Origin: Balneolia bacterium
GTDB taxonomy: Bacteria; Bacteroidota; Rhodothermia; Balneolales; Cyclonatronaceae
Length of the DNA: 42,512 nucleotides
Direction: 5' to 3'
Assembly (NCBI GenBank): GCA_003567135.1
Contig: PXAI01000332.1
Coordinates: 1-42,512, forward strand
Part shown: piece by piece, positions 2 through 42,512 of the stretch
How the letters are laid out: the number at the start of each line of letters is the position of its first letter
Numbering within the stretch: the stretch's first letter is position 1
Translations under genes and position numbers: made by a program
Notes under the pieces: model-generated
Databases searched by the model: none
Seen by the model: the letters and a program-made list of their open reading frames with translations, nothing else
What the model was told of the DNA's origin: nothing

Positions 2-112
2 TTCACCAGGGAAAATCTCCAGAAAACGTACGGCGGCAGGCTGAATATTCTGACGGATGTGATCGAACTCACACGAAAATCTGAATTTGTCAGAGAAAAA
101 GGGCATGATTGA
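2..112 (+). CDS. C-terminal fragment of a metal ABC transporter ATP-binding protein (5' end outside the window)
   Basis: Frame 2 is open from the window edge (FTRENLQKTYGGRLNILTDVIELTRKSEFVREKGHD*). The TGA at 110-112 overlaps the ATG at 105 of the next gene (ATGATTGA coupling). The ..ENLQKxYGG.. C-terminus and the two ABC-3 permeases downstream fit a ZnuC/MntB/TroB-type ATPase. Confidence 0.5.
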   Translation, partial: FTRENLQKTYGGRLNILTDVIELTRKSEFVREKGHD

Positions 113-1427
113 TCTTTTCTTTGAATTTTTCTCATTAGCTGATCCGAACGTCCGGTACGTGCTGGCCGGCACTATTCTGCTCGGCCTTTCTGCCGGTTCG
201 CTGGGCTGTTTTGCGGTTTTGCGGGAGCGCGCGCTTGTGGGCGATGCGGTTGCCCACGCGGTTCTGCCCGGCGTTTGTCTGGCGTTTATCGTGGCGGGGG
301 ATAAAAATCCGTATTGGCTGCTCATGGGATCGCTATTTTTTGGATGGCTCAGCATGCTCGTTATGGATATCGTAATCCGGAACAGCAAAATTTCCCCGGA
401 TGCCTCAATCGGGATGGTGCTTTCGGTTTTTTTCGGCCTTGGCGTGGTGATGCTCACCTATATTCAGTCAACCGGAAATGTTAACCAGAGCGGGCTGGAC
501 GCATTTTTGTTTGGAAACGCCGCCTCCATGCTTCCTGAAGATGTGTACGTTTTCGGCTTTGTGAGCCTGATTGTGCTGATTTGCATCGCTGTGGCTTACA
601 AAGAATTAAAAATGGTGAGCTTCGATCCGCAGTTTGCTAAATCGCTTGGCTATCCGGTAAAACGCCTGGAATTTTTGATTGCGACGCTGCTCGTTGTCAC
701 CATCACCGCCGGATTGCAAGCGGTAGGCGTGGTATTGATGGCATCCATGCTGATTATTCCGGCCGCCGCCGCGCGGTACTGGACCGACACGCTTCATGTT
801 ATGGTAATCACAGCAGGCGTTTTTGGCGCGCTGGCCGCCGTCAGCGGTTCTTGGATTAGTTATTCGGCGCCCGCCATGCCAACCGGACCGTGGATGGTCG
901 TTTCCGCCGCCATTATTTTTGCAGCATCGTTTTTATTTGCGCCAAAACGCGGCGAAGTCGGCCAGTGGTTTATGAAGCGGAAGAACTCCCGAAAAGTAAA
1001 TGAAGAGAACGTTCTCAAAACACTCTACCATCTGGAAGAAGCAGACGGAAATCAGGGGCGGATCAGAACTGAAAAGGATGTACTGAAGCGCAGAAATATG
1101 AAGGAATCCACCCTGAGAAACATCCTTAAAAAACTCGAGGCAAAAAAGCTGGTAACCTGCTACCAGGGTTCACCCAACGGATATCTGCTTACGGAAAACG
1201 GTCGACAGGAAGCCGCCAGAGTTGTGCGCGTGCACCGGTTGTGGGAGCTTTATCTCACCGAACGCCTGGAAATAAAAGGTGATCACGTGCATGATGATGC
1301 CGAATCGATGGAGCACGTTATCACACCGGAAATTGAAGAGAGGCTGGCCGAACTGCTGGGGCATCCGGTGCTTGATCCCCACAAAAGCCGGATTCCGTAC
1401 GGAAACCCAAAACCAAAGGAGGGATAG
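105..1427 (+). CDS. ABC-3 family metal (Mn/Zn) permease fused to a C-terminal DtxR/MntR-type metalloregulator domain
   Basis: The N-terminal ~290 aa is polytopic with ABC-3 motifs (DAVAHAVLPGV, SFDPQFAKSLG, MLIIPAAAARYW). The C-terminal ~145 aa has a winged-helix part (LRNILKKLEAKKLV...LTENGRQEA) plus a DtxR dimerisation/metal site (RVHRLWELYLTERL...DHVHDDAESMEHV). The track starts at TTG 87; I prefer ATG 105, which overlaps the upstream stop. Confidence 0.9.
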   Translation: MIDLFFEFFSLADPNVRYVLAGTILLGLSAGSLGCFAVLRERALVGDAVAHAVLPGVCLAFIVAGDKNPYWLLMGSLFFGWLSMLVMDIVIRNSKISPDASIGMVLSVFFGLGVVMLTYIQSTGNVNQSGLDAFLFGNAASMLPEDVYVFGFVSLIVLICIAVAYKELKMVSFDPQFAKSLGYPVKRLEFLIATLLVVTITAGLQAVGVVLMASMLIIPAAAARYWTDTLHVMVITAGVFGALAAVSGSWISYSAPAMPTGPWMVVSAAIIFAASFLFAPKRGEVGQWFMKRKNSRKVNEENVLKTLYHLEEADGNQGRIRTEKDVLKRRNMKESTLRNILKKLEAKKLVTCYQGSPNGYLLTENGRQEAARVVRVHRLWELYLTERLEIKGDHVHDDAESMEHVITPEIEERLAELLGHPVLDPHKSRIPYGNPKPKEG

Positions 1428-3131: not shown

Positions 3132-4604
3132 TCAGAACGGGAACTGCCGTTCGAGCACGTGCCCGCTCAGCCAGTCCTGAACCCGCTGATACTGAACGTT
3201 GTGGTAAAAACTCTGCCTCTCAAGGGTAAAATGATTAAACGGAAAACGGTCACTTCCGATTCGTGTTTGCCTGAATAAAAAAACGCGAGTCGGATCGGTT
3301 GAATCGTAACCATACGTCCATCTGATGCCTGATGATCCTATGCGTTCAGCATAAAAAGGTGGGCCGAAAAGAATAAAGATCATCCCCAGATCGGTTTTCC
3401 AGCCTTCTTTGAAGGTGGTAAATCTCCTGTTGGCGTTAACCACGCGTTCGTAGTATAGCGCCATCACGCGACGCGCTTTTTCGGTACTACCAAGATTGCT
3501 CACCCAGAAATACTCTACCGCACGAAGAAGCTCTTCCGGATCATCTCTTTTTTTCATCAGTTCGCGATAGCGGCGGTTGTTCATCAGGTAAATAAGGGGG
3601 GCGGCCAGCTCGTAAGGCTCAACTACTTCGGGGAAAAACGATGTTCGCACGCCGAAATCGCGGGCAACAAACCGAAGAGCATCAGCGCGGCCTTGGTCCT
3701 CATCCTGCGTAACAAAAACTTCAAATCGGTAATTTCCAATTTCCGGAAGCGGCACATTAAAGTTGATTTCGATAGCTCCCGTTTCACCGGTGAATTCTCG
3801 GATCTGCTCGCTGATAATTTCAGCATTACCGTAATTAATGCCCCGCCGCTCAAGTGATGATACTGACCTGTTGATTTCGGACAAGCCTCCGGCCGGTCTG
3901 AGATCAGACTCAAACCGAATCAGCCGCATATTGAGTATAAAACGTCCGGAATCATCAGGATTAATCACAAAAAAACTGAAGTCAAGGCTGTCGATACTTG
4001 ACGGGATATTATACGTGCCCACTCCGTAGGGATCCTCATCGCGATCGATCGGAATCCCTTTTATATTGATGTCAGAAACGCGAATCCGGTTTGATTCGCT
4101 GTCTGGCAGTGAAACGTTTCGCACGCGGGTATTCTGCTGGTTGGAGGTCTGATCATGCACCGTAACCTGAAGCACGTAATCACCCGGATCAATGGCAAAA
4201 CGATTGTCAACCCGTTCGCGCTGGTAACCAGGGATAATGGAATTTGACGACGGTGAAAAGCTGAACTCCTCGCTTTTCCGGATGACGTTTACCGGTTCGG
4301 CTTCATCGCCGGCATCCTGCGGTAACAGGGTATAGGTGATGACCACATCGGCGGCCTGTCCGTTGTCATCGCTTCTGCGGAAAATCAGGCTGGAGACCAG
4401 AAGATCAACGGTTGTACTAAGATAAGCGGTACCATCCTCACTGTAAGCCGGATTGGCAGCGATCACGAAATCGGGGCCATCCGGGATAAAGCCGAATTCC
4501 GAGCCGGTGTCCACGCGATCCGGTAAATAGGATGGAGAACAAGCGGCGGCCCATAAAATCAGCGCCAAAAACAGAGTGGTATGTTTTATCCGGATATAAC
4601 TCAT
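3132..4604 (-). CDS. GWxTD domain-containing lipoprotein (paralog 1)
   Basis: Lipobox LILWAAAC. The C-terminal region reads ...YFWVSNLGS..YYERVVNANRRFTTFKEGWKTDLGMIFILFGPP...DWLSG. It aligns over its full length with the ORFs at 12734-14104 and 14105-15565. Confidence 0.85.
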   Translation of the reverse strand: MSYIRIKHTTLFLALILWAAACSPSYLPDRVDTGSEFGFIPDGPDFVIAANPAYSEDGTAYLSTTVDLLVSSLIFRRSDDNGQAADVVITYTLLPQDAGDEAEPVNVIRKSEEFSFSPSSNSIIPGYQRERVDNRFAIDPGDYVLQVTVHDQTSNQQNTRVRNVSLPDSESNRIRVSDINIKGIPIDRDEDPYGVGTYNIPSSIDSLDFSFFVINPDDSGRFILNMRLIRFESDLRPAGGLSEINRSVSSLERRGINYGNAEIISEQIREFTGETGAIEINFNVPLPEIGNYRFEVFVTQDEDQGRADALRFVARDFGVRTSFFPEVVEPYELAAPLIYLMNNRRYRELMKKRDDPEELLRAVEYFWVSNLGSTEKARRVMALYYERVVNANRRFTTFKEGWKTDLGMIFILFGPPFYAERIGSSGIRWTYGYDSTDPTRVFLFRQTRIGSDRFPFNHFTLERQSFYHNVQYQRVQDWLSGHVLERQFPF

Positions 4605-4672
4605 GTCATCAATTTAACGTAACCTTTCATCAAATAATATTTTAATTAATGGTAGCTGTACCGTTAATATGG

Positions 4673-4711
4673 TCAAAAAAAAGGCTTTATCCCCATAAAG
4701 GATAAAGCCTT
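4673..4711 (-). terminator. Rho-independent terminator of the protease gene
   Basis: Perfect 12-bp stem (aaggctttatcc 4681-4692 / ggataaagcctt 4700-4711) with a 7-nt loop. On the minus strand it is followed by a T-run (A-run 4673-4680 on plus). It lies 20 nt past the stop at 4731. Confidence 0.75.
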
Positions 4712-4730
4712 GCATAACGTTCCGATGGTG

Positions 4731-6443
4731 TTACTTGAGCATCAGGAGTTTTTTTGTTTCGGTGTAATCCCCGGAAACCATTCTGTAAAAGTACACACCG
4801 CTGGAAAGGCCTGTTCCGTCGAATACAACTTCATGCGGCCCCTCGGTAACAACTTCGTTGATAACCGTTTGAATAAACTGCCCCTGCGCGTTGAACACAT
4901 CAATCCGGACTCTCCGCGTGCTGTTGATTACGAATGGAATCGTAGTCTGCATATTGAACGGGTTAGGATAGTTTTGCGCAACGTCGGCGGATCTGTTTTC
5001 GGGCAGCGCAACACCTGAGAGCGGAATCACCAGAGGGTTCGGCTCGTTTTCAGCATTATGAGTGATAACGAGCTCTGCTTCGTGTGATGATGCATCAACC
5101 GCATCATAGAGCAGGCGCACGATCCGGTTCTGGCCCGGAGATACGCTTCCTGCTGATGTTTCAGGATTGGCGATATCAAAACTGGCATCGCCTTCAATGG
5201 AAATAGTGTAATCCAGATCATTTTGAGCCAGTCCGTCGTTGATAATCACAAAAGAAACCTCGACTGGTGAACCCACGTTTGCGACTCCGTAGTCGACAGA
5301 CCTGTCGCTGACTCTGAGAAATACGTCGCGATCAAGGAAATCAGCGCAGTTAAAACCAAGTGGCCATCCCCAGTCGCCCAGTTTGCCGCAAAAAACGGGC
5401 CCTGGGGAGTGAATAGCGAAGTTTGCAGCAACCTGCGGCCTCATCAGCGCATTAGGCGTATTTGTGTAGGTACCCTGATCCAGGTGAGAATAACTTGATC
5501 CGGGGCTCCAGCTGGCCGGTGTAAAAATAGGTACTCTTTCGTTGGCATTTACGCTAACGGCGTTTTCACCAATTGCAAAAACACCGCCACGTGCGCCGGT
5601 TACCGCCTGATACAGTGCGTTTGAGTTGTTTGGGTATTCGCTGGTATCGGTAATGGAGACACCGTCGGCATCAACGTTAAAGCGATCGTAAACGGTTGGC
5701 TGTCCGCCAATTCCGTAAGCAGCGGTTTGCTGGCTCACGTTTGCCTGGATACTTCCGATGAAACCAATGCCGTGGCCAATTTCATGCAGTGCAACGGTAA
5801 CGAAGTCAAACTCGCCGGATCCGGGGTTTGCGTCTGTACCGTAGTACCAGTTATCCCGGTTACAGTTCATATTAATATTTATATCAAAATCCTCACCGGC
5901 AATCTGTGAAACATAGTCTGTACCCGTCATTGCACTGGCCTGGGCAATAGAGTACCAGGTATTGGGGATGGCTCCCTGAAAGTTTTGGATTACTCTGGTC
6001 GGGCCGGCGCTTCCCAGCGTAGTACCACCAAGATCGGCCCAGTTGGCACGAATTCGAATGGGAACAGAGGAGCTTAAGTGCGAACCCCAGAGCGCTCCGG
6101 AATACTCCATAGCAGCACGCGCCGCTGCCGGCCACTGATCGCCGCCGCAATTACTAACAAAGGTCCATTCAATATTTGCAGACTGAAGGCTGGCATCCAT
6201 CAGGTCGGCTTCGTTTTGCGGCCTTACGAAATAGTTGGCATCGTAATTACCTGGCTCAAGCGTACAGATTTCTTCAGACGGAGGAGCTTCCATTATAATT
6301 GCGCCGTCGTCGAGCACGATTTGCGCCCAGGCGGAAGAGCTGATTAACAGAATCAGAAACAATGTAAGGGCAGTTGCGGTTAGTGTCCGAATTGCTGCGG
6401 AGTGATAGTAGAGGTATGAATTCATAGATTGGTTGTTTCGCAT
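4731..6443 (-). CDS. Secreted zinc metalloprotease (HExxH) with a T9SS C-terminal sorting domain
   Basis: Signal peptide ...SSSAWA-Q and zinc motif VALHEIGHGIGFIGS. The C-terminal ~80 aa (NYPNPFN..TTIPF....RIDVFNAQGQ.....GPHEVVFDG.GLSSGVYFYRM......TKKLLMLK) matches a typical Por_Secre_tail CTD. Confidence 0.85.
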   Translation of the reverse strand: MRNNQSMNSYLYYHSAAIRTLTATALTLFLILLISSSAWAQIVLDDGAIIMEAPPSEEICTLEPGNYDANYFVRPQNEADLMDASLQSANIEWTFVSNCGGDQWPAAARAAMEYSGALWGSHLSSSVPIRIRANWADLGGTTLGSAGPTRVIQNFQGAIPNTWYSIAQASAMTGTDYVSQIAGEDFDININMNCNRDNWYYGTDANPGSGEFDFVTVALHEIGHGIGFIGSIQANVSQQTAAYGIGGQPTVYDRFNVDADGVSITDTSEYPNNSNALYQAVTGARGGVFAIGENAVSVNANERVPIFTPASWSPGSSYSHLDQGTYTNTPNALMRPQVAANFAIHSPGPVFCGKLGDWGWPLGFNCADFLDRDVFLRVSDRSVDYGVANVGSPVEVSFVIINDGLAQNDLDYTISIEGDASFDIANPETSAGSVSPGQNRIVRLLYDAVDASSHEAELVITHNAENEPNPLVIPLSGVALPENRSADVAQNYPNPFNMQTTIPFVINSTRRVRIDVFNAQGQFIQTVINEVVTEGPHEVVFDGTGLSSGVYFYRMVSGDYTETKKLLMLK

Positions 6444-6739
6444 CGTATAATTAAACAGAGCGATTAATGGGTATCTGAGTACTTAAAGAGGTTGAGGGTT
6501 AATCGCTGCATGGTCATAAATCAAGGTCAAAATAACAAATACTTTAATTTCAACGAACATTAATTTGATTATGTTCAGTTAGCACCGGAAAAGATGAACA
6601 GCTCAGCAAATGTGGGGAGCATAATCAGGCCTGAGCTTCTGAAGAAAACGAGGGGAACAGAGGGTGAAATTCGGGGTTCAAAAAAAGCTCCTATATATAG
6701 AGTGTAAAAATACTGGTAGGAAGCCGCCGGTCTGAGTAA

Positions 6740-6752
6740 CCCGGATTATTCA
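6740..6752. repeat. Left arm of a 13-bp perfect inverted repeat (CCCGGATTATTCA)
   Basis: It is the exact reverse complement of 6879-6891 (TGAATAATCCGGG), 126 bp away. A third near-copy, AGTAATCCGGG, sits at 6993-7003. Confidence 0.8.
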
Positions 6753-6878
6753 CCAAAGCCTGCCCCGACTAATTCGGGAAAAAGTCGCCGTCTTTTGATA
6801 CACCCAAATTTGAGAGAATACATATTTGTTCAAGGTTTTAATATATCAAATACTTATGTCGCATATCTTACTGCTTCC

Positions 6879-6891
6879 TGAATAATCCGGG
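6879..6891. repeat. Right arm of the 13-bp perfect inverted repeat (TGAATAATCCGGG)
   Basis: See 6740-6752. It lies inside the 954-bp ORF-free region between the protease and SusC genes. Confidence 0.8.
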
Positions 6892-7397
6892 CTAACCGGA
6901 AGATGGTAAATTATGGTTGATATCAATCAACGGAACACACAGGAGACAATTCGGGTACAGTGCTGGCGGTGTTATCAGATCTGCAGCTGATCAGTAATCC
7001 GGGAAAACTCTGATTTTACCTTAAGCGACGACACTTTTTTAGAAACGATTTCAAAAAAAATAAATCAGGGTTAGATTTTTGGGATGTTATTCTTCGATCC
7101 TTATAAAAATGTGAATCCCGCAGAAGAATTTTCTCTTTTCCTTTCAAATTATTGATAATGGATTGAATTCAATGGTATTGGCGGTATGAGATGTGCCGGT
7201 TACGGAACTGGGTTTACGGCCAAAGCAGGCTTTAGAAAGGGCATTGCGAGTTAAGGAAAAACAAAATTATTTTTTTTTGAATATCTATCCTTATATTTTG
7301 CTTTGAGCATTAATCTGCAATACTGCTTCGTGATACCTTCACCTCCAATGGAGCCTACGGGCAGTATGTTGAATTGTAATAACAACTAATCAAATCC

Positions 7398-10300
7398 ATG
7401 ATCAACATGATAAGAAAGCTACTAAGTTTAGCCGTGATCTTGTTGTTTCCGGTGTTTGCTATCGCACAGACAGCAACAATTTCCGGTACAATAACGGACG
7501 CTGCAACTGGTGAACCGCTCATCGGTGCTTCAGTCCTGGTCACCGAACTCGGCACAGGTGCTTCGTCTAACCTTGACGGTGAATACACGATTACTAATGT
7601 ACCCTACGGTTCATATAATCTTCGCATTTCATTCGTCGGTTATACAACACTTCGTGAAACAATCGAGGTAAATCAAGCCACTATAGAGCGCAATTTCGAA
7701 CTTCGAGTAGACCCAAGAGGTCTTGAAGATGTCGTTGTAACCTCTCAGGCTATTGAAAGAGAATCCCGTTCACTCGGTTACTCCATTTCTTCCGTTTCTG
7801 GTGAAGAAATTTCCGCAGTTAGAGACGCGAGCGTTATCAGCTCCCTCTCAGGCCGCGTACCGGGTCTGGACGTAACCCAGCAATCAGGTAACCTCGGCGG
7901 TTCAACCCGTATTGTTCTTCGTGGTGTATCCTCACTTGCGGGCGACAACCAGCCACTATTCGTAGTAGATGGTGTGCCTATTTCTAACTCAAACATTAAC
8001 GACGAGCGTCTTTCCGGTACCGTTGATGTTGGTAACCGTGCCAATGACATCAACCCTGATGACATTGAGTCTGTTACTGTACTTCGTGGCGCTGCTGCTG
8101 CTGCTCTCTACGGCCAGCGCGCGCGTAACGGCGTTATTATGGTTACAACAAAAAGAGGCCAGGATGTTCCAAATGCGAATATCTCTATTAATTCTTCTGT
8201 TCAGTTCAGCGACGTTGCAAAACTCCCTGACTTCCAGAATGAATTCGCAGCCGGTATTGATGGTCAATACAGCACTGGCCTTGGCTCAAGCTGGGGACCG
8301 AGAATCGAAGGGCAGGAAGAAGAAGATTTCCGTGGTGAAATCGTTCGCCTTGAAGCTTCACCTGATAACGTTCGTGATTTCTACGATACCGGTGTTAACC
8401 TGATCAACAGCGTTTCAATTTCCAACGCTGATGCTAACAGTGATTACCGTCTTGGCTTTACATCTCTGAACCAGACCGGTATCATTCCTGGTGCTGAACT
8501 TGACAGATTCACCCTGAACTTTAACTCAGGTACACGTCTTGCTTCCAATATCAATGCTCGTATTGGTGCAAACTATGTTACCTCAACTTCAGAAGGTAGA
8601 GCTGTTGCCGGTGGTAACGACCCGAACGTTCTTACTTCACTGCTCAACACACTGCCAAGAACGGTTTCTAATGCCCAGCTTCGCGATTATATCAATCCGG
8701 ACGGAACGCAGAACCCGCTTACCAACTTTACAAATAACCCGTACTGGTTGGTTAGAGAGAATACCTGGAGCAACGAAGTTGAAAGACTTTACGGTTTCGC
8801 TCTTGTTGAGTACAACCCTTATGAGTGGCTTGGCTTCTCTGCACGTTTCGGTACCGATGGCGTAACTGAAACCAGAAGAAGAATCAACCGTCCTGGTACA
8901 ATTGGCCGTGAAGGCGGTGGTTGGACAGACAATACCATCATCGAGCGTCAGTTCAACAGTGATATCATGATGAACGTTGAACGCGACATTACCGATGAAA
9001 TCAACTTCAGAGGTATTATTGGTCACAACATCAACACAAGAAGAGTTGAGCGTACCAACAACACAGCGAACACGCTGACGATAGACAGGCTATACTCTTA
9101 CGCTAACGTTGAGAGCAATAGCCCAAGCAACAGCTTTGTTGAGCGCCGTCTCGTTGGTGTTTACGGGGATGTAACATTTGGTTTCAGAAACTACCTCTTC
9201 CTTAATCTTACAGGTAGAAATGACTGGAGTTCAACACTTCCAACTGATTCCAACTCTTTCTTCTATCCGTCAGCTAACCTGAGTTTTGTATTCACCGAGG
9301 CGTTTGACCTTGCAGGTGATATCCTTTCTTATGGTAAGTTAAGACTTAACGCTGCTCAGGTAGGTTCTGATGAGAGCCCGTACCAGCTTCAGTTTACGTT
9401 CTCACCGGTTAGCTCAATCTTCGGGCAGTACGGCACAGGTAGTACCTTCCCATTCGGTGGTCTGACAGGTTTCTCTGCTCAGGGTACTGTTCCTCCGACA
9501 GATCTTAAGCCACAGCGCCAGACTCAGTATGAGATTGGTGGTGAGTTCCAGTTCCTCGACGGACTCTTCGGTCTTGACGTTACTTACTACAACACAGTAA
9601 CTTCAGATCAGATTATCTCACTTCCAAGACCTCCATCCACAGGTTTCGGTGCACTTCGTACCAACGTGGGTGAAGTTTCAAACAAAGGTATTGAGCTTGT
9701 ACTTGATGCATCTCCATTCCGCGGACGTGACTTCGCGTGGACTCTTACTACAAACTTCGCGAAAAACACCAACCGTGTTGAGTCGCTCGCAGACGGTGTA
9801 GACGAAATCGTTATCGCATCCGGTTTCAACGGCCTTCAGGTTGTTGCTGAACCAGGTGAGAGCCTCGGCCTCTACGGTCTTGGATGGCTTACTGATGATG
9901 ACGGCAACTACATCATCGACGAAAACACCGGTCTTCGTCGCGCAGGTGAGCGTCAGCGTCTTGGCAGCACCGACCCAGATTTCCGGGTAGGTTTAAACAA
10001 TGCATTCCGTTTCAGAGACTTCGATTTCAGCTTCCTCATCGACTGGAAGCAGGGTGGAGTTGTTTTCTCACAGACAGTTAACTCTCTCCGTAGAGCGGGT
10101 GTTTCTGAAGAGACTGCTACAAACCGTTTTGGTTCCTTCATTGATCAGGGTGTTATCATCACCGGAACAGATGACGATGGCAACATCACATCTACACGTC
10201 CGAACGATGTACCTGTTCAAAGCATGCAGGCTTTCTGGCAGAACATTGCCCGTGCCGATGTAATGCAGGGTGGAATCTACGAATCAACTTACGTTAAACT

Positions 10301-10532
10301 GCGTCAGGTTAGAATTGGCTACACACTGCCAAGAAGTCTCCTCGAGAACACGTTCCTTGGAACGGCTTCTGTAGGTTTTGAAGCAAGAAACCTCTTCACG
10401 CTGTTTACAACCGTACCACACATCGATCCTGAAACAAACCTGTTTGGTTCAGCTTCTGATGGTCAGGGTATTGAGTGGAATAACCTTCCATCTACCCGTC
10501 AGTATGGTTTCAACGTCAGATTCACTTTCTAA
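7398..10532 (+). CDS. SusC/RagA-family TonB-linked outer membrane transporter
   Basis: 1044 aa with a signal peptide. N-terminal carboxypeptidase-regulatory-like domain (TISGTITDAATGEPLIGASVLV..G..S..DG.Y.I.NVP.G.Y.L..SFVGY). Plug motifs (SLSGRVPGL, RGVSSL...PLFVVDGVP, ESVTVLRGAAAAALYG.RA.NGVI). Terminal ...GFNVRFTF. The start could instead be ATG 7407. Confidence 0.95.
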   Translation: MINMIRKLLSLAVILLFPVFAIAQTATISGTITDAATGEPLIGASVLVTELGTGASSNLDGEYTITNVPYGSYNLRISFVGYTTLRETIEVNQATIERNFELRVDPRGLEDVVVTSQAIERESRSLGYSISSVSGEEISAVRDASVISSLSGRVPGLDVTQQSGNLGGSTRIVLRGVSSLAGDNQPLFVVDGVPISNSNINDERLSGTVDVGNRANDINPDDIESVTVLRGAAAAALYGQRARNGVIMVTTKRGQDVPNANISINSSVQFSDVAKLPDFQNEFAAGIDGQYSTGLGSSWGPRIEGQEEEDFRGEIVRLEASPDNVRDFYDTGVNLINSVSISNADANSDYRLGFTSLNQTGIIPGAELDRFTLNFNSGTRLASNINARIGANYVTSTSEGRAVAGGNDPNVLTSLLNTLPRTVSNAQLRDYINPDGTQNPLTNFTNNPYWLVRENTWSNEVERLYGFALVEYNPYEWLGFSARFGTDGVTETRRRINRPGTIGREGGGWTDNTIIERQFNSDIMMNVERDITDEINFRGIIGHNINTRRVERTNNTANTLTIDRLYSYANVESNSPSNSFVERRLVGVYGDVTFGFRNYLFLNLTGRNDWSSTLPTDSNSFFYPSANLSFVFTEAFDLAGDILSYGKLRLNAAQVGSDESPYQLQFTFSPVSSIFGQYGTGSTFPFGGLTGFSAQGTVPPTDLKPQRQTQYEIGGEFQFLDGLFGLDVTYYNTVTSDQIISLPRPPSTGFGALRTNVGEVSNKGIELVLDASPFRGRDFAWTLTTNFAKNTNRVESLADGVDEIVIASGFNGLQVVAEPGESLGLYGLGWLTDDDGNYIIDENTGLRRAGERQRLGSTDPDFRVGLNNAFRFRDFDFSFLIDWKQGGVVFSQTVNSLRRAGVSEETATNRFGSFIDQGVIITGTDDDGNITSTRPNDVPVQSMQAFWQNIARADVMQGGIYESTYVKLRQVRIGYTLPRSLLENTFLGTASVGFEARNLFTLFTTVPHIDPETNLFGSASDGQGIEWNNLPSTRQYGFNVRFTF

Positions 10533-10560
10533 TTTTTAAACCTACTTGTATAGTTTTCAT

Positions 10561-12003
10561 ATGAAAAAATTAATCACATTTCTTTTAGCAATTGGCGTCT
10601 TGTTTGCTTTTCAGGCTTGCGACAGCTTCCTGGACGTAAATACTGACCCTAACGCTGCTACGGAAGTACCGGGAGACGTTCTTTTCCCAACGGTGCAGGC
10701 CAATATGGCAGCGAGAACGATTGAAAGTGGCCCTGGCGGACTGTTCTTTTCACAGCTCTGGGGTCCCAGAGGCTCGACAGGTGTATTCCTTGAGCCAGAC
10801 AGATACCAAATCAGTGAGTTTACTACTGGTAACACTTGGTCAGGTATGTATGGTACCGTTCTTCGTAATATTACCATTATGATTGAGCAGGCTGAGGAAG
10901 CTACTCCTCCCAATAATAACGCTGCGGCACAGGGCAAAATCCTTGCAGCAAGCGTTTATTACATGTTGACCACCCTCTTTGAGGACATCCCTTTCTCACA
11001 GGCTAATAACCCTGAGTTCGAAAACCCTGAGTTTGATTCTCAGCGTGACGCTCTCTTCGGGATTATTGAGCTTGCGCAGGAAGGAATTGACCAGCTTGAT
11101 TTCGAAGAAGATGTTTTTGTTGGTGTAGTTGATGGTGACCTCATCTATGGTGGTGACCTTCAGAACTGGGCGCGCTTCGGCCGTTCACTCCAGCTCAAAG
11201 CATACATGCTTCTGAGAAACGGTGGCGAAAACGTTGATTCTCAAATCACAACTCTCCTTCAGGGTGATCTGATTCGTCAGAACAGCCAGAATGCGAAAAT
11301 TCCATTCTTTGATAATGACGACAATGCCAACATGAAGTGGAATCTTATGAACCTTTTCAGTGGTGGCGATAACGTATGGTGGGCCGGTGGTGCTGCTCTC
11401 GTTGACCTCATGAATGAATATGAGGATCCACGCAGAGCTACTTTCCTGTATCCACTTACTGATTCTGATCCTCCGGCGTATGCTGGTGCTCTTCCGGGAA
11501 CAACCGGCGGTGTGAACCGTGCAGTCGTTTCAGCGGTACATTTGAATGTACTTCAAAGAGACTGGCCGGAAAGGCTTATAACGTCTTCAGAAGTAGTATT
11601 GCAGGAAGCTGAGTTTTACCACAGAACCGGTAACACCGGTGCTGCCCGTCAGGCTTTTGAAGATGGGGTAAGATTGAGCATGGGCTTCTTTAATGGAAAA
11701 GATGGTGAAATCCCTGCTGCAACGCAGGATGCATTCATCGCCCAACTCCTTGCTGACTATGACAGCCGCGACAATGCTGGTCAACTGCGGATGATTCATG
11801 AACAACAATACATTGACCTGTTCGAAAGAGGGCAAGATGGCTGGACACAGTGGAGAAGAACCAAGGTGCCTGAGCTTACAATGCCTCAAAACGCTGTATT
11901 GGGTGACTTCATCAGAAGATATAACTACCCACCGGCTGAGAGAAACTCTAACCCGAACACCCCAGCACCTGTTTCAGGTGACACACCAATGTGGTTTGAA
12001 TAA
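10561..12003 (+). CDS. SusD/RagB-family outer membrane lipoprotein
   Basis: MKKLITFLLAIGVLFAFQAC lipobox followed by DSFLDVNTDPN, a typical SusD N-terminus. It sits immediately downstream of SusC and has TPR-like helical content. The track start at 10546 (TTG) is probably an over-extension. Confidence 0.9.
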   Translation: MKKLITFLLAIGVLFAFQACDSFLDVNTDPNAATEVPGDVLFPTVQANMAARTIESGPGGLFFSQLWGPRGSTGVFLEPDRYQISEFTTGNTWSGMYGTVLRNITIMIEQAEEATPPNNNAAAQGKILAASVYYMLTTLFEDIPFSQANNPEFENPEFDSQRDALFGIIELAQEGIDQLDFEEDVFVGVVDGDLIYGGDLQNWARFGRSLQLKAYMLLRNGGENVDSQITTLLQGDLIRQNSQNAKIPFFDNDDNANMKWNLMNLFSGGDNVWWAGGAALVDLMNEYEDPRRATFLYPLTDSDPPAYAGALPGTTGGVNRAVVSAVHLNVLQRDWPERLITSSEVVLQEAEFYHRTGNTGAARQAFEDGVRLSMGFFNGKDGEIPAATQDAFIAQLLADYDSRDNAGQLRMIHEQQYIDLFERGQDGWTQWRRTKVPELTMPQNAVLGDFIRRYNYPPAERNSNPNTPAPVSGDTPMWFE

Positions 12004-12026
12004 TCTAACTCAATTTATTGAATAAC

Positions 12027-12533
12027 ATGAAATATCTGTCATATATACTCTTTTTCGCCGTTCTTGCCTTTGCATACGGCTGTGAAGACATCACGGAAGA
12101 CTTTGACATTGACAATGAGGCACACGATGCGTTCGTATTGTTCGCTCCGGCTTCAAGTCAGGATGTCAGCGCTACTCCTTCCGCAACCGATCCTGTTATT
12201 GTGAACCTGAATGTTCAGGTAAGACCTAATTTCAGGGTTCGTGAGAGCCTTACTGTGAACCTCAACATTGGTGGAACAGCTACTCTTGGTAACGATTTCG
12301 TTCTCGAAAGCACGTTTGTACAAGAGCCGCCAACAACTACTGATGAAGAAACTGGTGAAGTTGAAATCGATCCGATTCAAACTTTCCAAATTCCGGTAGA
12401 AATTCTGCCAAATGCTGCTGCAGGTTCAACAATTGAAGTAACCCTTTCATCTGCAACTGTTTCAAGTGGACTTGATATCAGTGTTAATGAAGGCAGCTTC
12501 AACCAGACTCGTGTAATTCAGATTGGCGGATAA
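12027..12533 (+). CDS. Small lipoprotein with a Calx-beta-like domain, third gene of the SusC/D operon
   Basis: MKYLSYILFFAVLAFAYGC lipobox. LTVNLNIGGTATLGNDFVLES resembles the Calx-beta GTAxxGxDF signature, with beta-rich flanks. A terminator follows directly. Confidence 0.7.
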   Translation: MKYLSYILFFAVLAFAYGCEDITEDFDIDNEAHDAFVLFAPASSQDVSATPSATDPVIVNLNVQVRPNFRVRESLTVNLNIGGTATLGNDFVLESTFVQEPPTTTDEETGEVEIDPIQTFQIPVEILPNAAAGSTIEVTLSSATVSSGLDISVNEGSFNQTRVIQIGG

Positions 12534-12569
12534 TCCCCAAAGCTGATACACAGTTAAAAAACTGAATAA

Positions 12570-12603
12570 GGGGCAGGCCATTTTTGGTCTGTCCCTTTTT
12601 TGT
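12570..12603 (+). terminator. Rho-independent terminator of the SusC-SusD-lipoprotein operon
   Basis: An 11-bp stem (ggggcaggcca / tggtctgtccc, with two G-U pairs), a 4-nt loop, then TTTTTTG. Confidence 0.75.
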
Positions 12604-12733
12604 TTGATAAATATGCGAACAGGCTGAACTTTACGTTAAAATTATGTATTGTTTCATATATGGAAATAAACTGAGCAGCATTCGCTCTGAATTTACTCTT
12701 CTATAACCAAGCTTTGAAAACACTATCCGCTTC

Positions 12734-14104
12734 ATGAAGTATTTGGCCATTGCCCCCTTATTTATGTTGTTACTTGCCTGTTCATCCGCTGATCAGGCCA
12801 CGCAACAGTCAGCCTCACAGGTTAGCACATCTGAAGGGCCACAGTTTTTCGCCAGGGCTAATTATCAGATTGATGACGACCTCAACACTATACTTGTAGT
12901 CCATTTATCATTGCAGGACAACAGCATTATAACTTCCTATGCAGATGGTCAGGCCAGCCAGCGATTTGAGTTTTCAGTGCGAATATCAGACGAAACCGGT
13001 AACACGGTTTTTAGTGATAAGCAGGTTATCTCGCTTGATACGGATGAAATTGGGCGCAACAGCCAGATTCAGAAAAAAGTCCCGGTTCCTCATGGCGCCT
13101 ATAATGCGGAAGTAACGGTAACGGATAAAAGTAATAACAACAGTAATACAGTTGCGCTCTATAAAGAAATTCCTAATCTCGAAGAAGAGACCATAATTCT
13201 CAGTAATGTGATTGTCTCTACAGTTGAAGACACGCTATCTTCGGTACAGGGAGATACCGTAAACATTCAGTACCAGCTTGTCAACCGGTCTGATCAGGAG
13301 TTGTCTGTTTACGCCAGATTGTACCAGATCTCTACAGATAACCAGCTGCCGCGCAGAATGGGGCTCAGGTCACCAAGCCGTGGCAGTATTCAGTTTCAGG
13401 GGATTGACCTGACAGATCGCACACTGCTTGAATCTGACAACTACACGATAGATTACGGTGACTATGTCCAGACGAAATCACTCAGCCTCGATATCGAGGA
13501 AACCGGCTATTTCGTTGTCAGGGTTACCGTAGAGGACGATAACCGCGAAGTACTTGCCAGTAATGAAGAATCATTTACCTATTTCGGTCAGTCTTTTCCG
13601 TATGTGAATACCGTAAAAGATATGGCAGACGCTCTCTTTTATTTGATGACACGAAGCGAATATCGTAATCTTCTTGCCGCAGAAACCGAAGAAGACATGA
13701 AGCAAAAAATGGATCAGTTCTGGCTGAGCAACATTGAAGACCGTGCCCAGGCTGCAGAGGTAATCAACCTTTATTTTACAAGGGTAGAGCAGGCGAACAG
13801 GTTTTTCTCCGGCTACAAACAGGGATGGATGACCGATAAAGGCTACGTTTACATTCTCTTTGGAGCTCCGATGTACATAGAGAAATATTTCGATCGGGAA
13901 ACCTGGGTATACGGGCCGAATCGCTATACCGACAATACTGTATTCCAGTTCCGCCGCGGACAGGTCAGAAGTTCAATCTATGATCATTCACACTACATTC
14001 TTGAGAGAAGAGGCCACAGCTTTACCAACAACTACGAAGCGATTGAGTACGACAGAATCAGTGAGTGGCTGAGCGGATATATTCTCAGAAAAAGAGACTA
14101 CTGA
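12734..14104 (+). CDS. GWxTD domain-containing lipoprotein (paralog 2)
   Basis: Lipobox MLLLAC. The C-terminus reads ...QFWLSNIED..LYFTRVEQANRFFSGYKQGWMTDKGYVYILFGAP...EWLSG. It has the same two-module N-terminal architecture as paralogs 1 and 3. Confidence 0.85.
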   Translation: MKYLAIAPLFMLLLACSSADQATQQSASQVSTSEGPQFFARANYQIDDDLNTILVVHLSLQDNSIITSYADGQASQRFEFSVRISDETGNTVFSDKQVISLDTDEIGRNSQIQKKVPVPHGAYNAEVTVTDKSNNNSNTVALYKEIPNLEEETIILSNVIVSTVEDTLSSVQGDTVNIQYQLVNRSDQELSVYARLYQISTDNQLPRRMGLRSPSRGSIQFQGIDLTDRTLLESDNYTIDYGDYVQTKSLSLDIEETGYFVVRVTVEDDNREVLASNEESFTYFGQSFPYVNTVKDMADALFYLMTRSEYRNLLAAETEEDMKQKMDQFWLSNIEDRAQAAEVINLYFTRVEQANRFFSGYKQGWMTDKGYVYILFGAPMYIEKYFDRETWVYGPNRYTDNTVFQFRRGQVRSSIYDHSHYILERRGHSFTNNYEAIEYDRISEWLSGYILRKRDY

Positions 14105-15565
14105 TCAGTTGCGCCTTGTGAGGACTGCACCGGTAAGCCAGTCGTTAATCCGCTCAAATTCTATGCTCTGGTAAAACCGGTTACGAACCAGCACGTAATG
14201 GGAAAAAGGGAAAGATGTTCCCGTAACGCGTGCGCGGTCAAACCGGAAAATCATCCGGGGATCCATCTGATTAAATCCGTAGTACCAGATATGTGAATCG
14301 ATGGTATTTTCCACAGATACTGGAGGGCCAAATAGTATGTAAACCATCCCCATATCCGTTTTCCAGCCTTCTTTGAATGTGGAAAACAGGCGGTTTGCTT
14401 CCTCAACGCGGTTATAATACATCTCGATTACATCACGTGCCTTATTTCTGTCCCGGATATTTTCAAGCCAGAACGTATCGATTGCGCGTTTGAGAGAGTC
14501 AGGATCGTTAATCGTGTTAAGTTTTCTAAACTCACGGGGCGACATCAGATAGTACAAAGGCGCAGCCAGCTCCTCCGGCGTTCCGATTTCGGGGTAGTTA
14601 GGGCTCATCAGGCTGAAATCCCTGAATTTCGACGGAGAAACATCTTCACCCAGACTTTCATCCAGCCTGACTTCAAACCTGTACACACCCTGGCGGGGAC
14701 GCGGAATGATGTACTCAATCAAAACGGGTCCGGTTTCATCATCGAAAGTGCGGGTTTGCTGCTGAACGAGCGTCGTGTCGCTGTAGTCGATGCCCCGATA
14801 GGCTAACGATCCGGTGGTAAGCGGTAAGGCGCTCATCGCTCTCGGCGGCTCGTCATCCGACCTGAAGCGAATCAGGTTCATGATCAGCTCATCAGTTTGA
14901 TCTGCGTTAAATCTGTCGACATAAAAACTGAATTTCAGCGAATCGGCTCTCCCCTGAATGGTGTAGGATGAGATATTTTTGATATCTCCGTTACTGAGCG
15001 CGTCCACTTTTATGTCGGAAACCACGGTACCTTCGCTTTCCGGATCAGGAATCTGAACAATCAGCTGTGTTGGGGTTGTGTTTCCTGAAGACTTATCCGT
15101 CACCTGAATGGTAATCTGATATTCTCCCGGTTCGAGCCTCACGCTTCGGTTGTAGATGAAATTCTCGGCTCCGCCTGATCGGCGTTTATCAACCACGGTA
15201 AATTCATCATGGATTCGCTGTACGGTTTCGGTGTCGCCTTCAGTGCCTTTTTTGGAGAAGTAGGATACAATCCGGACATCCGTTTTTCTTTCTCCCTCAA
15301 TATTGCGGAAGATAAGCGCGCGTTTTGGCAGCGTGATTGTCAGATCAATAACGGGCGTATCATCTTCATAAAAACCCAGCGCCCGTGCCATCACTTCGGG
15401 ATACCCGACCCGGTAATTATGGCTTGAACCAGGGTCAGTCCGGTTTTCGGATGTGGTGCCGCACTGAACCAGGAAAAATCCGCTGATCAGGATGATCAAC
15501 AGAATACCTGCTTTACCAAAACTGAACGCGCCGGGGGATTGCAATGATGTATGTGCCTGGGTCAT
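14105..15565 (-). CDS. GWxTD domain-containing lipoprotein (paralog 3)
   Basis: Lipobox FLVQC. The C-terminus reads ...TFWLENIRD..MYYNRVEEANRLFSTFKEGWKTDMGMVYILFGPP...DWLTG. By eye it is closest to paralog 1. Confidence 0.85.
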   Translation of the reverse strand: MTQAHTSLQSPGAFSFGKAGILLIILISGFFLVQCGTTSENRTDPGSSHNYRVGYPEVMARALGFYEDDTPVIDLTITLPKRALIFRNIEGERKTDVRIVSYFSKKGTEGDTETVQRIHDEFTVVDKRRSGGAENFIYNRSVRLEPGEYQITIQVTDKSSGNTTPTQLIVQIPDPESEGTVVSDIKVDALSNGDIKNISSYTIQGRADSLKFSFYVDRFNADQTDELIMNLIRFRSDDEPPRAMSALPLTTGSLAYRGIDYSDTTLVQQQTRTFDDETGPVLIEYIIPRPRQGVYRFEVRLDESLGEDVSPSKFRDFSLMSPNYPEIGTPEELAAPLYYLMSPREFRKLNTINDPDSLKRAIDTFWLENIRDRNKARDVIEMYYNRVEEANRLFSTFKEGWKTDMGMVYILFGPPVSVENTIDSHIWYYGFNQMDPRMIFRFDRARVTGTSFPFSHYVLVRNRFYQSIEFERINDWLTGAVLTRRN

Positions 15566-15870: not shown

Positions 15871-17304
15871 ATGAGAATTTCAGATCGCAGAACTAAGATT
15901 GTTTGCACCATTGGCCCGAGTGTAAACACGAAAGAAGGCATTGAGGGTTTGTTTAAGGCGGGCATGAACATGGCCAGGCTCAACTTTTCGCACGGAACGC
16001 ATGAAGATCACGCCAAAGTTGTTGAGCTGATTCGCGCCACAGCACGAAAATTCAAGTACAGTGTTCCGATCCTGATGGATCTTCAGGGACCGAAAATCCG
16101 TGTGGGCCAGATGAAGGATGGCGGCCAGGTTGTGGAAACCGGTAGCTACCTTACGCTTACGCCCGAAGACGTCATCGGTTCTTCAGAGCTTGTTCCCATT
16201 GACTACGAGTTTCTGGCCAACGATGCCCGTGACGGCGATACCATCCTGCTGGACGACGGACTTCTCGAATTCAAAATCGTAAAAGCCGGAACCAGTAAAA
16301 TCACCGCACGCGTGGTAAACGGCGGATTGCTCAAATCCCGCAAAGGGGTCAATCTTCCCGGGGTAAAACTTTCCATTTCTTCAATCACTGAGAAAGATTA
16401 TGCGGATGTGGATTTTGGAATGACCCAAAACGTGGATTACGTTGCGCTCTCGTTTGTCCGCCGCTCGGAAGATGTGCAGGAACTTGTTTCGCGGATACGC
16501 GCTGCCGGATCCAACGCCGGCGTGATTGCCAAAATTGAGAAGCCGGAAGCGCTGGACGTCATCGATGAAATTATCGAAGAAGTCGACGGCATCATGGTAG
16601 CCAGAGGTGATCTCGGGATTGAGATTCCGAGTGAAAAAGTGCCGATGGTTCAGAAGAAAATTATTGATGCGTGCCGCAGAGCAGGGAAACCCGTTATTAC
16701 CGCCACGCAGATGCTTGATTCGATGATCACGAATCCAAGGCCAACACGCGCGGAAAGCTCCGACGTTGCCAATGCAGTTCTCGACGGAACCGACGCAATC
16801 ATGCTTTCCGGTGAAACCGCGGCGGGAAAGTTTCCATTCGAAGCCGTCAAGGTAATGGATCGTATCTGCCGGAGCGTTGAAACGCAGTCTGATGAAGTGT
16901 ACCGAACGCTTGATTTCATCCAGCCGGAATGGCGCGAAAAGCAGATCGTGGAGTCGATCAGCTACACGTGCGTTGAGTTGGCAGAAAACGTAAACGCCAA
17001 AGCGATTGCCGTAATCACCCACTCAGGAACAACCGCCAAGCGAATTGCGAAGTATCGTCCTCACGTACCCGTTTTTGCCTTCACGGACAGCCGGGAAGTG
17101 CGCCGGCAGCTGAATCTGGTTTGGGGCGTGCAGAGTATCAAACTAAACGAGCTTTTTGATACGGACAGCAGCGTTCAGATTATGGAGGATTATCTTCGTA
17201 AAAGCGGTGTGGTTAAAAGCGGAGAACGGATTGTGATTGCCACAGGCATGCCGATTGCGGAACGCGGACGAACAAATATGGTAAAAATCACTACATTTGA
17301 TTAA
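15871..17304 (+). CDS. pyk: Pyruvate kinase
   Basis: RRTKIVCTIGPS, MNMARLNFSHG, MDLQGPKIR, MVARGDLGIEIP and TQMLDSM are canonical PK motifs. Length is 477 aa. Confidence 0.95.
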   Translation: MRISDRRTKIVCTIGPSVNTKEGIEGLFKAGMNMARLNFSHGTHEDHAKVVELIRATARKFKYSVPILMDLQGPKIRVGQMKDGGQVVETGSYLTLTPEDVIGSSELVPIDYEFLANDARDGDTILLDDGLLEFKIVKAGTSKITARVVNGGLLKSRKGVNLPGVKLSISSITEKDYADVDFGMTQNVDYVALSFVRRSEDVQELVSRIRAAGSNAGVIAKIEKPEALDVIDEIIEEVDGIMVARGDLGIEIPSEKVPMVQKKIIDACRRAGKPVITATQMLDSMITNPRPTRAESSDVANAVLDGTDAIMLSGETAAGKFPFEAVKVMDRICRSVETQSDEVYRTLDFIQPEWREKQIVESISYTCVELAENVNAKAIAVITHSGTTAKRIAKYRPHVPVFAFTDSREVRRQLNLVWGVQSIKLNELFDTDSSVQIMEDYLRKSGVVKSGERIVIATGMPIAERGRTNMVKITTFD

Positions 17305-36910: not shown

Positions 36911-36923
36911 TTCTCGTTAATGA

Positions 36924-42147: not shown

Positions 42148-42512
42148 GGGGATGTACTTGGTTTCGACGGGATGCGTGGAATCTCAGGTTGCATGTCGAG
42201 TTCCCAGTGGTACTCGTAAAAAACATTGGACTTTAAATTGTAAGTGACAACTCTTACTCTTACCGGATGGCCGCCTAACAGCGCCTCCTGCTCCGTTAGC
42301 TGCCTGCCTGTCGGCGGCTCTCCGAGCATCATACTTTGACGGGCTGGCGCTGCACATCGGCCGGATGTGCTCAGCGCGAGACTTTTCCGGCCTGGTTGAG
42401 TGGCGTCGGGTCAGTCGGCAAACCACTCAGCGAGATTTAACACACTGACTACACATGTAGATACTTGGCGGTTTGCCATTTCGGACCCGGGTTCGACTCC
42501 CGGCATCTCCAC
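42148..42512 (+). ncRNA. ssrA: tmRNA (ssrA); the 3' terminal CCA region is cut by the window end
   Basis: The 5' end GGGGATGTACTTGGTTTCGACGGGATGCG... matches the tmRNA consensus GGGGnTG....GGnTTCGACGGG. The 3' end GGACCCGGGTTCGACTCCCGGCATCTCCAC gives a T-arm CCGGG/CCCGG. The acceptor stem GGGGAUG/CAUCUCC has the G3-U pair. The internal tag ORF ...GAC AAC TCT TAC TCT TAC CGG ATG GCC GCC TAA stops at 42276-42278. Confidence 0.92.

Follow-up and report, generated by a model that had tools for sequence, protein, structure and literature searches.

A SusC/SusD locus of the BT2264 type beside GWxTD lipoproteins predicted to face the periplasm in the Balneolales

Introduction

RagAB of Porphyromonas gingivalis is a peptide-importing SusCD-like system that is supplied by gingipains secreted through the type IX secretion system (T9SS). 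Canonical Sus-like polysaccharide utilization loci (PULs) have SusC and SusD side by side with a further surface lipoprotein after them, and carbohydrate-active enzymes (CAZymes) together with a dedicated regulator are expected. The described system closest to the locus examined here is PUL27 of the gut bacterium Bacteroides thetaiotaomicron (BT2261-BT2264; PDB 5fq6/5fq7/5fq8): the structure of Bt2261-64 held an oligopeptide ligand (PMC7782687), and PUL27 (BT2262-64) is expressed constitutively, has no defined substrate and affects fitness in the mouse gut (PMC8121099). We analysed a stretch of 42,512 nucleotides (the window; contig PXAI01000332.1 of assembly GCA_003567135.1) from a Balneolia bacterium of the order Balneolales, in which a SusC/SusD pair and a small lipoprotein gene lie among three paralogous lipoprotein genes of the GWxTD family and a gene for a candidate T9SS-secreted metalloprotease. 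The SusC/SusD part is a further member of the known, poorly understood PUL27/BT2264-like type. The GWxTD lipoproteins lack the acidic signal for surface export and probably face the periplasm, and the block as a whole looks like a mosaic of separate transcription units.

CAZyme-less SusCD systems are poorly understood, and a BT2264-type system beside GWxTD genes in the Balneolales, a lineage that here is free-living, gives a second, independent handle on this transporter class. GWxTD is a large family, conserved in the Balneolales, the Rhodothermales and parts of the Bacteroidota, for which a confident structure model now exists that has no solved relative. To our knowledge, SusC-type transporters have no lipoprotein partner on the periplasmic side in the current SusCD model. 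If GWxTD proteins do serve outer-membrane barrels from the periplasm, they would supply a component that is missing from the way nutrient import or envelope assembly is modelled in the Fibrobacterota-Chlorobiota-Bacteroidota (FCB) group; if they do not, what we describe is an ordinary PUL27-like locus beside a core envelope gene. The finding is useful as a lead that can be tested, but we do not regard it as a surprising discovery.

Results and Discussion

The SusC/SusD unit is of the BT2264 type

The transporter gene (7398..10532, + strand) encodes a SusC/RagA-type TonB-dependent protein of 1044 amino acids, which scored 591.6 bits against TIGR04056 (cut-off 368) and 54.1 bits against the SusC/RagA signature TIGR04057 (cut-off 46.2). 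A carboxypeptidase-regulatory-like domain forms its N-terminus and a plug is present, whereas an STN domain is absent. When we searched all PDB chains with phmmer, residues 100-1042 aligned with residues 14-982 of BT2264 (5fq6_B) at 504 bits (E 7e-150, 33% identity), while every other solved SusC scored at most 143 bits, including the levan transporter BT1763 (143) and RagA (130). BLASTP gave the same picture, with 484 bits for BT2264 versus 162 for BT1763 and 166 for RagA, and on this similarity we place the window SusC in the BT2264-type subgroup. The SusD-like lipoprotein that follows (10546..12003, + strand; 485 amino acids) matched PF12771 at 220.8 bits (E 3.7e-65); its best PDB match was an unnamed SusD-like lipoprotein (4q69_A, E 1e-54), and BT2263 was also found (E 1e-17). 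The last gene of the unit encodes a small lipoprotein of 171 amino acids (12018..12533, + strand) that had no Pfam family and no PDB sequence at E≤10, so the label of Calx-beta-like protein that an initial annotation had given it, made from the sequence without database searches, was dropped.

To place the unit among its relatives we collected loci around GWxTD homologs, 3 from metagenomes and 80 from genomes (the latter all of Balneolales, with one for each species), cited below by their L numbers, and mapped the window proteins onto them. In these 83 loci, homologs of the 171-amino-acid lipoprotein were found only directly after orthologous SusC/SusD genes in L009 (E 3e-10) and L018 (E 2e-5), where the SusC proteins share 56-59% and the SusD proteins 44-45% identity with those of the window. 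This trio (SusC, SusD and the small lipoprotein) therefore has a GWxTD gene next to it in three different genomic settings (the window, L009 and L018), and a BT2264-like SusC/D pair lies beside a GWxTD gene, or one gene off, in 15 other Balneolales loci. A search of metagenome contigs for SusC genes related to that of the window, made to see whether GWxTD always adjoins them, gave 4 loci, and the sole close relative (L090, 56% identity) starts at the end of its contig.

A domain scan of all open reading frames (ORFs) of at least 120 amino acids between positions 2300 and 17400 revealed no glycoside hydrolase or other CAZyme, no hybrid two-component system (HTCS), no SusR, no extracytoplasmic function (ECF) sigma factor and no anti-sigma factor, in agreement with the initial annotation. 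The unusually long non-coding region of 954 bp between the divergent protease and SusC genes (6444..7397) holds no regulator ORF, no ORF of more than 44 amino acids lying wholly inside it, and no Rfam match at E≤1. The locus resembles canonical Sus-like PULs in that SusC and SusD adjoin and one more surface lipoprotein comes after them, but CAZymes and a dedicated regulator are both missing, as is the STN domain of SusC, and we do not count it among them. It compares more closely with PUL27: the window SusC aligns end to end with BT2264 and the SusD with BT2263, and both loci have a small lipoprotein gene after susD and neither a CAZyme nor a regulator. The two differ in that the 171-amino-acid lipoprotein is not similar to any PDB chain, the accessory lipoproteins of the BT2261-64 complex included, in that GWxTD flanks and a T9SS protease have not been described for PUL27, and in their hosts (gut Bacteroides versus Balneolales). 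The likeness to RagAB is one of concept only, namely a CAZyme-less SusCD-like pair by a T9SS-secreted protease for which peptide import is plausible; the similarity to RagA is generic for the family (130 bits, ∼24% identity), no GWxTD protein is known there, and the window protease is not conserved at the locus.

Since PUL27 is constitutive and without a defined substrate, a locus without regulator or CAZyme is typical of the BT2264 transporter type. The initial description of the pair as a regulator-less, non-glycan type is supported by the 504-bit match to BT2264 and by the absence of CAZyme and regulator. By analogy with BT2261-64, the system most likely imports oligopeptides or another non-glycan oligomer; peptides in particular are a real possibility that we rate slightly short of an even chance.

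The GWxTD paralogs and their predicted structure

The three paralogs, GW1 (3132..4604, - strand; 490 amino acids), GW2 (12734..14104, + strand; 456 amino acids) and GW3 (14105..15565, - strand; 486 amino acids), occupy exactly the ORFs originally proposed. BLASTP aligned them end to end in every pairing (GW1 and GW3, 36% identity, E 1e-91; GW2 and GW3, 29%, E 2e-63; GW1 and GW2, 25%, E 4e-35), and these alignments together with a multiple alignment support their description as full-length paralogs. The genes that they bracket are those originally described: profile searches confirmed SusC, SusD and the T9SS tail of the HExxH protein, and the 171-amino-acid lipoprotein lies there too. All three also exceeded the curated cut-offs of both hidden Markov models for the family, with 120.1, 132.0 and 154.2 bits for GW1, GW2 and GW3 against PF20094 (GWxTD_dom; cut-off 26.9) and 70, 84.5 and 91.8 bits against TIGR04514 (cut-off 28). 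The motif reads GWKTD in GW1, GWMTD in GW2 and GWKTD in GW3, so that the paralogs share GW(K/M)TD, and its G, W, T and D were invariant in a 39-sequence alignment. In the same alignment the lipobox cysteine was at least 90% conserved, and it was present in 99/100 locus homologs. The GWxTD domain of GW1 covers approximately residues 317-478.

We modelled GW3 with AlphaFold2 from 39 homologs (pLDDT 88.6, pTM 0.83). The model has an N-terminal signal helix, beta-sandwich domains at ∼47-172 and ∼186-319 and an alpha+beta domain at 330-486, and together with the alignment it bears out the architecture of a lipobox cysteine, two beta-sandwich modules and a C-terminal GWxTD domain that had been read from the sequence. 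The confident model has no PDB relative for the GWxTD fold: a domain-only model (pLDDT 88.8) had no PDB fold match by Foldseek (best E 1.7), and PDB sequence searches with full-length GW3 and with the GWxTD-domain profile returned no match. Foldseek hits of the full-length model were to generic tandem beta-sandwiches only (transglutaminase barrels, RbmA and arrestin; TM <0.2), and we set them aside as uninformative on function. The family is large, the domain profile identifying 5,124 clusters at 50% identity (E≤1e-3), 692 of these at E≤1e-30. By the description of the family, GWxTD would also occur in lineages such as the Acidobacteria that lack a T9SS or SusCD. Literature searches for GWxTD, TIGR04514, PF20094 and IPR030959 found no paper on the family, and the view that GWxTD is a named but uncharacterised family holds. 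What is new here for GWxTD is a predicted periplasmic orientation, a model without a PDB fold match, and an enrichment beside SusC genes that is specific to one order.

In a neighbour-joining tree, GW3 grouped with the GWxTD proteins encoded next to the pyruvate kinase gene (pyk) in L001, L002 and L004, and also with that of L005, which has no adjacent pyk; its closest homologs (44-49% identity) are from Balneolales metagenome-assembled genomes. GW2, the most divergent of the three, sits on a long branch and has no orthologue among the sampled genomes. The nearest relatives of GW1 are encoded beside SusC and crcB genes in L009-L011 and L027, and members of this clade adjoin SusC (of the BT2264 type in L007 and L009) as well as crcB (L009, L010 and L027). 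GW3 is the core copy, fixed beside pyk and porW across the order, GW2 is a divergent local copy, and GW1 belongs to a paralog clade that is older and accompanies SusC genes. We also noted that the GW1-like genes of L009, L010 and L011, all soda-lake Balneolales metagenome assemblies, have a large co-directional ORF of 618-806 amino acids immediately upstream (L009 7044-9464, L010 1219-3243, L011 79-1935) with no Pfam match.

The GWxTD lipoproteins are predicted to face the periplasm

Surface lipoproteins of the Bacteroidota carry an export signal of at least two acidic residues after the lipidated cysteine, with a polar or basic residue before them, in forms such as C-X-K-(D/E)2, SDDDD and SDDFE (PMC5080379). 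As a measure of orientation we counted D and E at Cys+1 to Cys+5 in the lipoproteins of the fetched loci, with the lipoproteins at the SusD position as positive control. PorW/SprE, a periplasmic outer-membrane lipoprotein of the T9SS, was used as the negative control. At least two acidic residues were present in 34/51 of the SusD-position lipoproteins (all had at least one; mean 1.8) and in 10/19 of the small lipoproteins after SusD (mean 1.58), as opposed to 0/50 for PorW (mean 0.12) and 0/99 for the GWxTD proteins (mean 0.17). Across the family the signal was seen in 3/313 GWxTD proteins (Balneolales 2/116, Bacteroidota 1/108, Rhodothermales 0/89), and in the Bacteroidota the residues after the cysteine are often Lys-rich, for example C-GSKKS. 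Within the window, the sequences C-SPSYLPD (GW1), C-SSADQA (GW2) and C-GTTSEN (GW3) show no acidic signal, and C-DSFLD of SusD and C-EDITED of the 171-amino-acid protein do. The small lipoprotein is accordingly predicted to be exposed at the surface, and the GWxTD proteins, which resemble PorW in this respect, probably face the periplasm.

This predicted orientation contradicts the initial proposal that the GWxTD lipoproteins are surface components for substrate capture or protease tethering, for which a periplasm-facing position had been named as refuting; judged by sequence, the lack of the export signal that 34/51 SusD-position proteins carry now points to just such a position.

Neighbourhood of GWxTD genes

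Within the Balneolales, pyk is the immediate, divergent neighbour of 56/87 GWxTD gene clusters, and porW lies beyond pyk wherever the contig is long enough, so that the order PorW-PK-GWxTD recurs in most of 82 non-redundant related loci. In the window GW3 is divergent from pyk (15871..17304, + strand; TIGR01064, 573 bits), which is followed by the gene for PorW/SprE (17389..20211, + strand; NF052312, 266.8 bits versus a cut-off of 250, residues 22-630) and, to the right of it, by pyrD (20216-21325), a Mur-ligase-like gene (21593-22909) and rho (23050-24810). The order rho, Mur-ligase-like, pyrD, porW, pyk, GWxTD is kept in L001 and most of the 80 genome loci. Cultivable relatives with the porW-pyk-GWxTD arrangement include Rhodohalobacter halophilus JZ3C29 (L055), Gracilimonas sp. 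BCB1 (L030) and Balneola sp. EhC07 (L063). Because the pyk/porW neighbourhood is recurrent and the flank of pyrD, Mur ligase and rho matches L001, we place GW3 at the margin of a core-genome block that is conserved. The statement that the block is flanked by housekeeping genes is therefore correct for pyk, pyrD, the Mur ligase and rho, but it overlooked PorW/SprE.

SusC genes are strikingly common on the other side of the GWxTD clusters. Considering the clusters with both flanks visible, a SusC gene was the immediate neighbour in 28/79 and lay within four genes in 50/79. Counted by position, SusC genes took 32/168 of the immediate neighbour positions (19%) and 6/242 of those at least five genes away (2.5%), a ∼9-fold enrichment (odds ratio 9.3, Fisher p = 1e-8, a value that overstates independence as the genomes are related, although the effect itself is large). 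Other genes near GWxTD were noted in passing. FG-GAP/ASPIC-repeat proteins of 1141-1224 amino acids are encoded one to two genes away in L047 (6129-9791), L068 (6395-9820) and L073 (139-3813). A gamma-glutamyltranspeptidase gene follows a GWxTD-adjacent SusC/SusD pair in L046 (14661-17833) and also in L054 and L066, and two class-III aminotransferase genes follow other GWxTD-adjacent SusC units in L021, L083 and L049, which hints at amino-acid or peptide metabolism.

We then compared 10 GWxTD contexts from outside the order, consisting of 6 Bacteroidota and 4 Rhodothermales loci. In the Bacteroidota a SpoU-type methylase gene lies directly downstream of GWxTD in 5/6 loci and one gene off in the sixth, 3/6 loci have an Omp85-family gene just upstream, and lipid-A genes (lpxD, lpxC, lpxA) occur near GWxTD in two. 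In the Rhodothermales, GWxTD is co-directional with and follows tpiA in 3/4 loci, with a gap of ∼20-100 bp. Neither SusC nor porW adjoined GWxTD in any of the contexts (0/10). The co-occurrence of GWxTD and SusC genes, for which a test across the FCB group had been suggested, is found within the Balneolales (32/168 versus 6/242) and in none of the contexts outside it. Because the contexts outside the order are those of housekeeping and outer-membrane biogenesis genes, with no SusC or porW adjacency, we conclude that the GWxTD family behaves as a core envelope gene and that the SusC association is a feature of the Balneolales, where the tree shows that it accompanies repeated lineage-specific duplication of GWxTD.

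Some details of these contexts are worth recording. The run of UDG, Omp85-family, GWxTD and SpoU methylase genes with a later M1 aminopeptidase gene spans L085 8376-14431, L094 4847-16208 and L097 6187-13063; in L097 the position of Omp85 is taken by an ORF of the same size with no Pfam match. In L095 the SpoU methylase gene is followed by lpxD, lpxC/fabZ and lpxA. The tpiA-GWxTD loci are L088 (9211-11377), L089 (9224-11473) and L096 (7156-9383), and pyk, the fixed neighbour of GWxTD in the Balneolales, is a glycolytic gene as well.

One explanation suggested by the PorW synteny is that GWxTD is a T9SS accessory that cooperates with PorW/SprE at the outer membrane, on its periplasmic side. The adjacency of pyk to 56/87 clusters with porW behind it, the shared nature of the two proteins as lipoproteins without export signal, and the T9SS cargo genes often found near GWxTD would be in keeping with such a role. 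However, a glycolytic gene always lies between GWxTD and porW, the orientation is divergent, and the block also holds rho, pyrD and the Mur ligase and so looks like core-genome synteny. The Rhodothermales and Bacteroidota have T9SS cargo, yet porW is not adjacent to GWxTD in any of the 10 contexts. We consider this role highly improbable.

The main rival to a functional link with SusC holds that GWxTD proteins are general envelope lipoproteins whose genes happen to lie beside a variable, PUL-rich insertion hot spot with local duplications, downstream of the core porW-pyk-GWxTD block, so that adjacency carries no function. The sequence downstream of the GW3 orthologues is indeed variable (HMG-CoA reductase, response regulators, several SusC types and T9SS cargo), the paralog pairs within a genome are often sister branches in the tree (L034, L058 and L032), the SusC proteins adjoining GWxTD are of at least two different types, and outside the Balneolales the family is found in the SpoU methylase, tpiA, Omp85 and lpx contexts. 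Against it, the GWxTD copies that are not beside pyk are SusC-adjacent in 12/26 cases, which include the separate clades L041/L061/L082 and L009/L011/L027, and the orthologous trio keeps its GWxTD neighbour in the window, L009 and L018 at SusC identities of 56-59%. Adjacency without function is a possibility that we hold to be rather doubtful.

Transcription units and the protease

Two terminator-like hairpins are the strongest such sites of the region. One, with a 13-bp stem (7 G-C pairs) and a T-run, follows the small lipoprotein gene and precedes GW2 (12568..12597, + strand). The other, with a 14-bp stem and a T-run, lies between the stop codon of the protease gene and the start codon of GW1 (4681..4711, - strand), with promoter-like hexamers downstream of it (4676-4639, - strand). 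In two convergent pairs, GW2 with GW3 (14104/14105) and crcB2 with GW1 (3131/3132), the stop codons abut, and since no intergenic base remains in either pair a shared terminator would have no space. Because of the two hairpins, the convergence of GW2 and GW3 and the divergence of GW3 and pyk, the block looks like at least five transcription units, namely GW1, the protease, SusC-SusD-lipoprotein, GW2 and GW3. The idea of one coherent module does not sit well with this arrangement, in which the hairpins would set GW1 off from the protease and GW2 off from the SusCD unit.

The protease gene (4731..6443, - strand) encodes a secreted zinc-metalloprotease candidate of 570 amino acids with a signal peptide, the motif HEIGHGIGF and an Ig-like domain, and its C-terminus is a T9SS sorting domain of type A. 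This last domain (residues 492-567/570) scored 41.1 bits against TIGR04183 (cut-off 23) and 36.4 bits against PF18962 (cut-off 27; E 6.5e-9), and with its hydrophobic N-terminus ending in AWA-Q the protein has the features of T9SS type-A cargo. Against NF038122 (HExxHxLGF-type) it reached 64.9 bits, under the cut-off of 80, and we do not assign it to that family. An assignment to the M10 matrixins was also tried and rejected (E 0.02 only), and by its motif the protein is best described as a metalloprotease candidate without family assignment. Its catalytic region (residues 1-375) had no homolog in any of the 83 related loci.

T9SS-tailed proteins of other kinds do adjoin GWxTD: the neighbour is an S8 peptidase in L027 and an M12-like one in L078, while L032 has a BNR/sortilin-like protein there and L022 a fragment. 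These account for 4/168 of the immediate positions versus 3/600 elsewhere (p = 0.04), a weak enrichment that is compatible with chance given the many T9SS cargo genes of these genomes. The window protease itself is probably an opportunistic, lineage-specific neighbour and not a conserved component, judging from the lack of related catalytic regions at the other loci, and the place of a protease in the proposed module is not borne out by the sampled loci.

These results bear on the explanation given in the initial annotation, a single surface harvesting module in which proteins are cut by the protease, GWxTD lipoproteins exposed at the surface serve for substrate capture or protease tethering, and the SusCD pair imports the resulting peptides. 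Part of it agrees with our data, in that the SusCD pair is of the regulator-less BT2264 type, a relative of the transporter bound a peptide, and a T9SS-tailed protease is encoded next door. Further points in its favour are the S8 and M12 peptidases adjoining GWxTD in L027 and L078, another S8 peptidase five genes off in L001, T9SS-tailed M1 peptidases one to four genes downstream of GWxTD in L085, L094 and L097 (the same three Bacteroidota loci that have the Omp85-family gene), the gamma-glutamyltranspeptidase gene after SusD in L046, and the borderline count of T9SS-tailed neighbours. The rest of the evidence points the other way. The acidic export signal is missing from all 99 GWxTD proteins of the loci, yet it is carried by the SusD and small lipoproteins of the same loci; the window protease is not conserved at related loci; the hairpins isolate GW1 and GW2, and the block is not one unit; and the housekeeping synteny of GW3 is conserved, as expected of a core gene, in a family with no SusC adjacency in the 10 contexts from outside the Balneolales. 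A single surface module seems to us improbable, and it ranks with the T9SS-accessory role as less likely than adjacency without function.

A proposed mosaic locus with GWxTD on the periplasmic side

The explanation that we favour would make the block a mosaic of units and not a single protein-harvesting operon. Its core would be SusC, SusD and the small surface lipoprotein, acting as a TonB-dependent 'pedal-bin' importer of the BT2261-64 (PUL27) type without CAZyme or regulator, to which the divergent T9SS metalloprotease could supply peptides. The GWxTD lipoproteins would remain at the periplasmic side of the outer membrane and may have a role there with outer-membrane barrels, in docking, assembly or stabilisation. 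We link GWxTD to barrels because of its recurrent SusC adjacency in the Balneolales and its Omp85, lpx and housekeeping neighbours elsewhere. Taken as a whole, the combination of mosaic block, SusCD importer core and periplasm-side GWxTD envelope proteins appears to us about evenly balanced between right and wrong. Its parts differ in strength. A GWxTD role with outer-membrane barrels, exerted from the periplasm, is a tentative suggestion that we place on the unlikely side. A more far-reaching version, in which GWxTD is an unrecognised periplasmic partner of SusC transporters or of barrel biogenesis in the FCB group and the Balneolales paralogs are dedicated to particular SusCD systems, is more speculative still, and we think it unlikely.

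Several points weigh against the favoured explanation. The peptide of BT2264 was a co-purified ligand of undefined origin, and identity to BT2264 is only 33%. The enrichment of SusC genes comes from the related genomes of one order and could reflect a hot spot of PUL insertion together with local duplication. The export rule was derived from the Bacteroidota and not from the Balneolales, and for some lipoproteins there may be other ways to the surface. The terminator and promoter sites are consensus matches, the total numbers of which were not above the expectation from shuffled sequence. Finally, non-homologous T9SS peptidases do adjoin GWxTD in L027 (S8) and L078 (M12).

Other genes of the window

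Elsewhere in the window we made three observations. Left of the block, an ORF at 87-1427 (+ strand) has an ABC-3 metal-transport permease domain (residues 22-284) and, at its C-terminus, the metal-binding and dimerisation domain of an iron-dependent repressor (DtxR-type; residues 369-437), and so resembles a permease-sensor fusion; its end is overlapped by a second ABC-3 permease ORF (1279-2352). Far to the right, the region 35933-39182 (- strand) encodes a second TonB-dependent receptor of 752 amino acids, of a non-SusC type with a carboxypeptidase-regulatory-like N-terminus, followed by a DUF4249 protein. At the right-hand edge, a tmRNA gene (42148-42512, + strand; RF00023, 167 bits) extends past the 3' end of the window.

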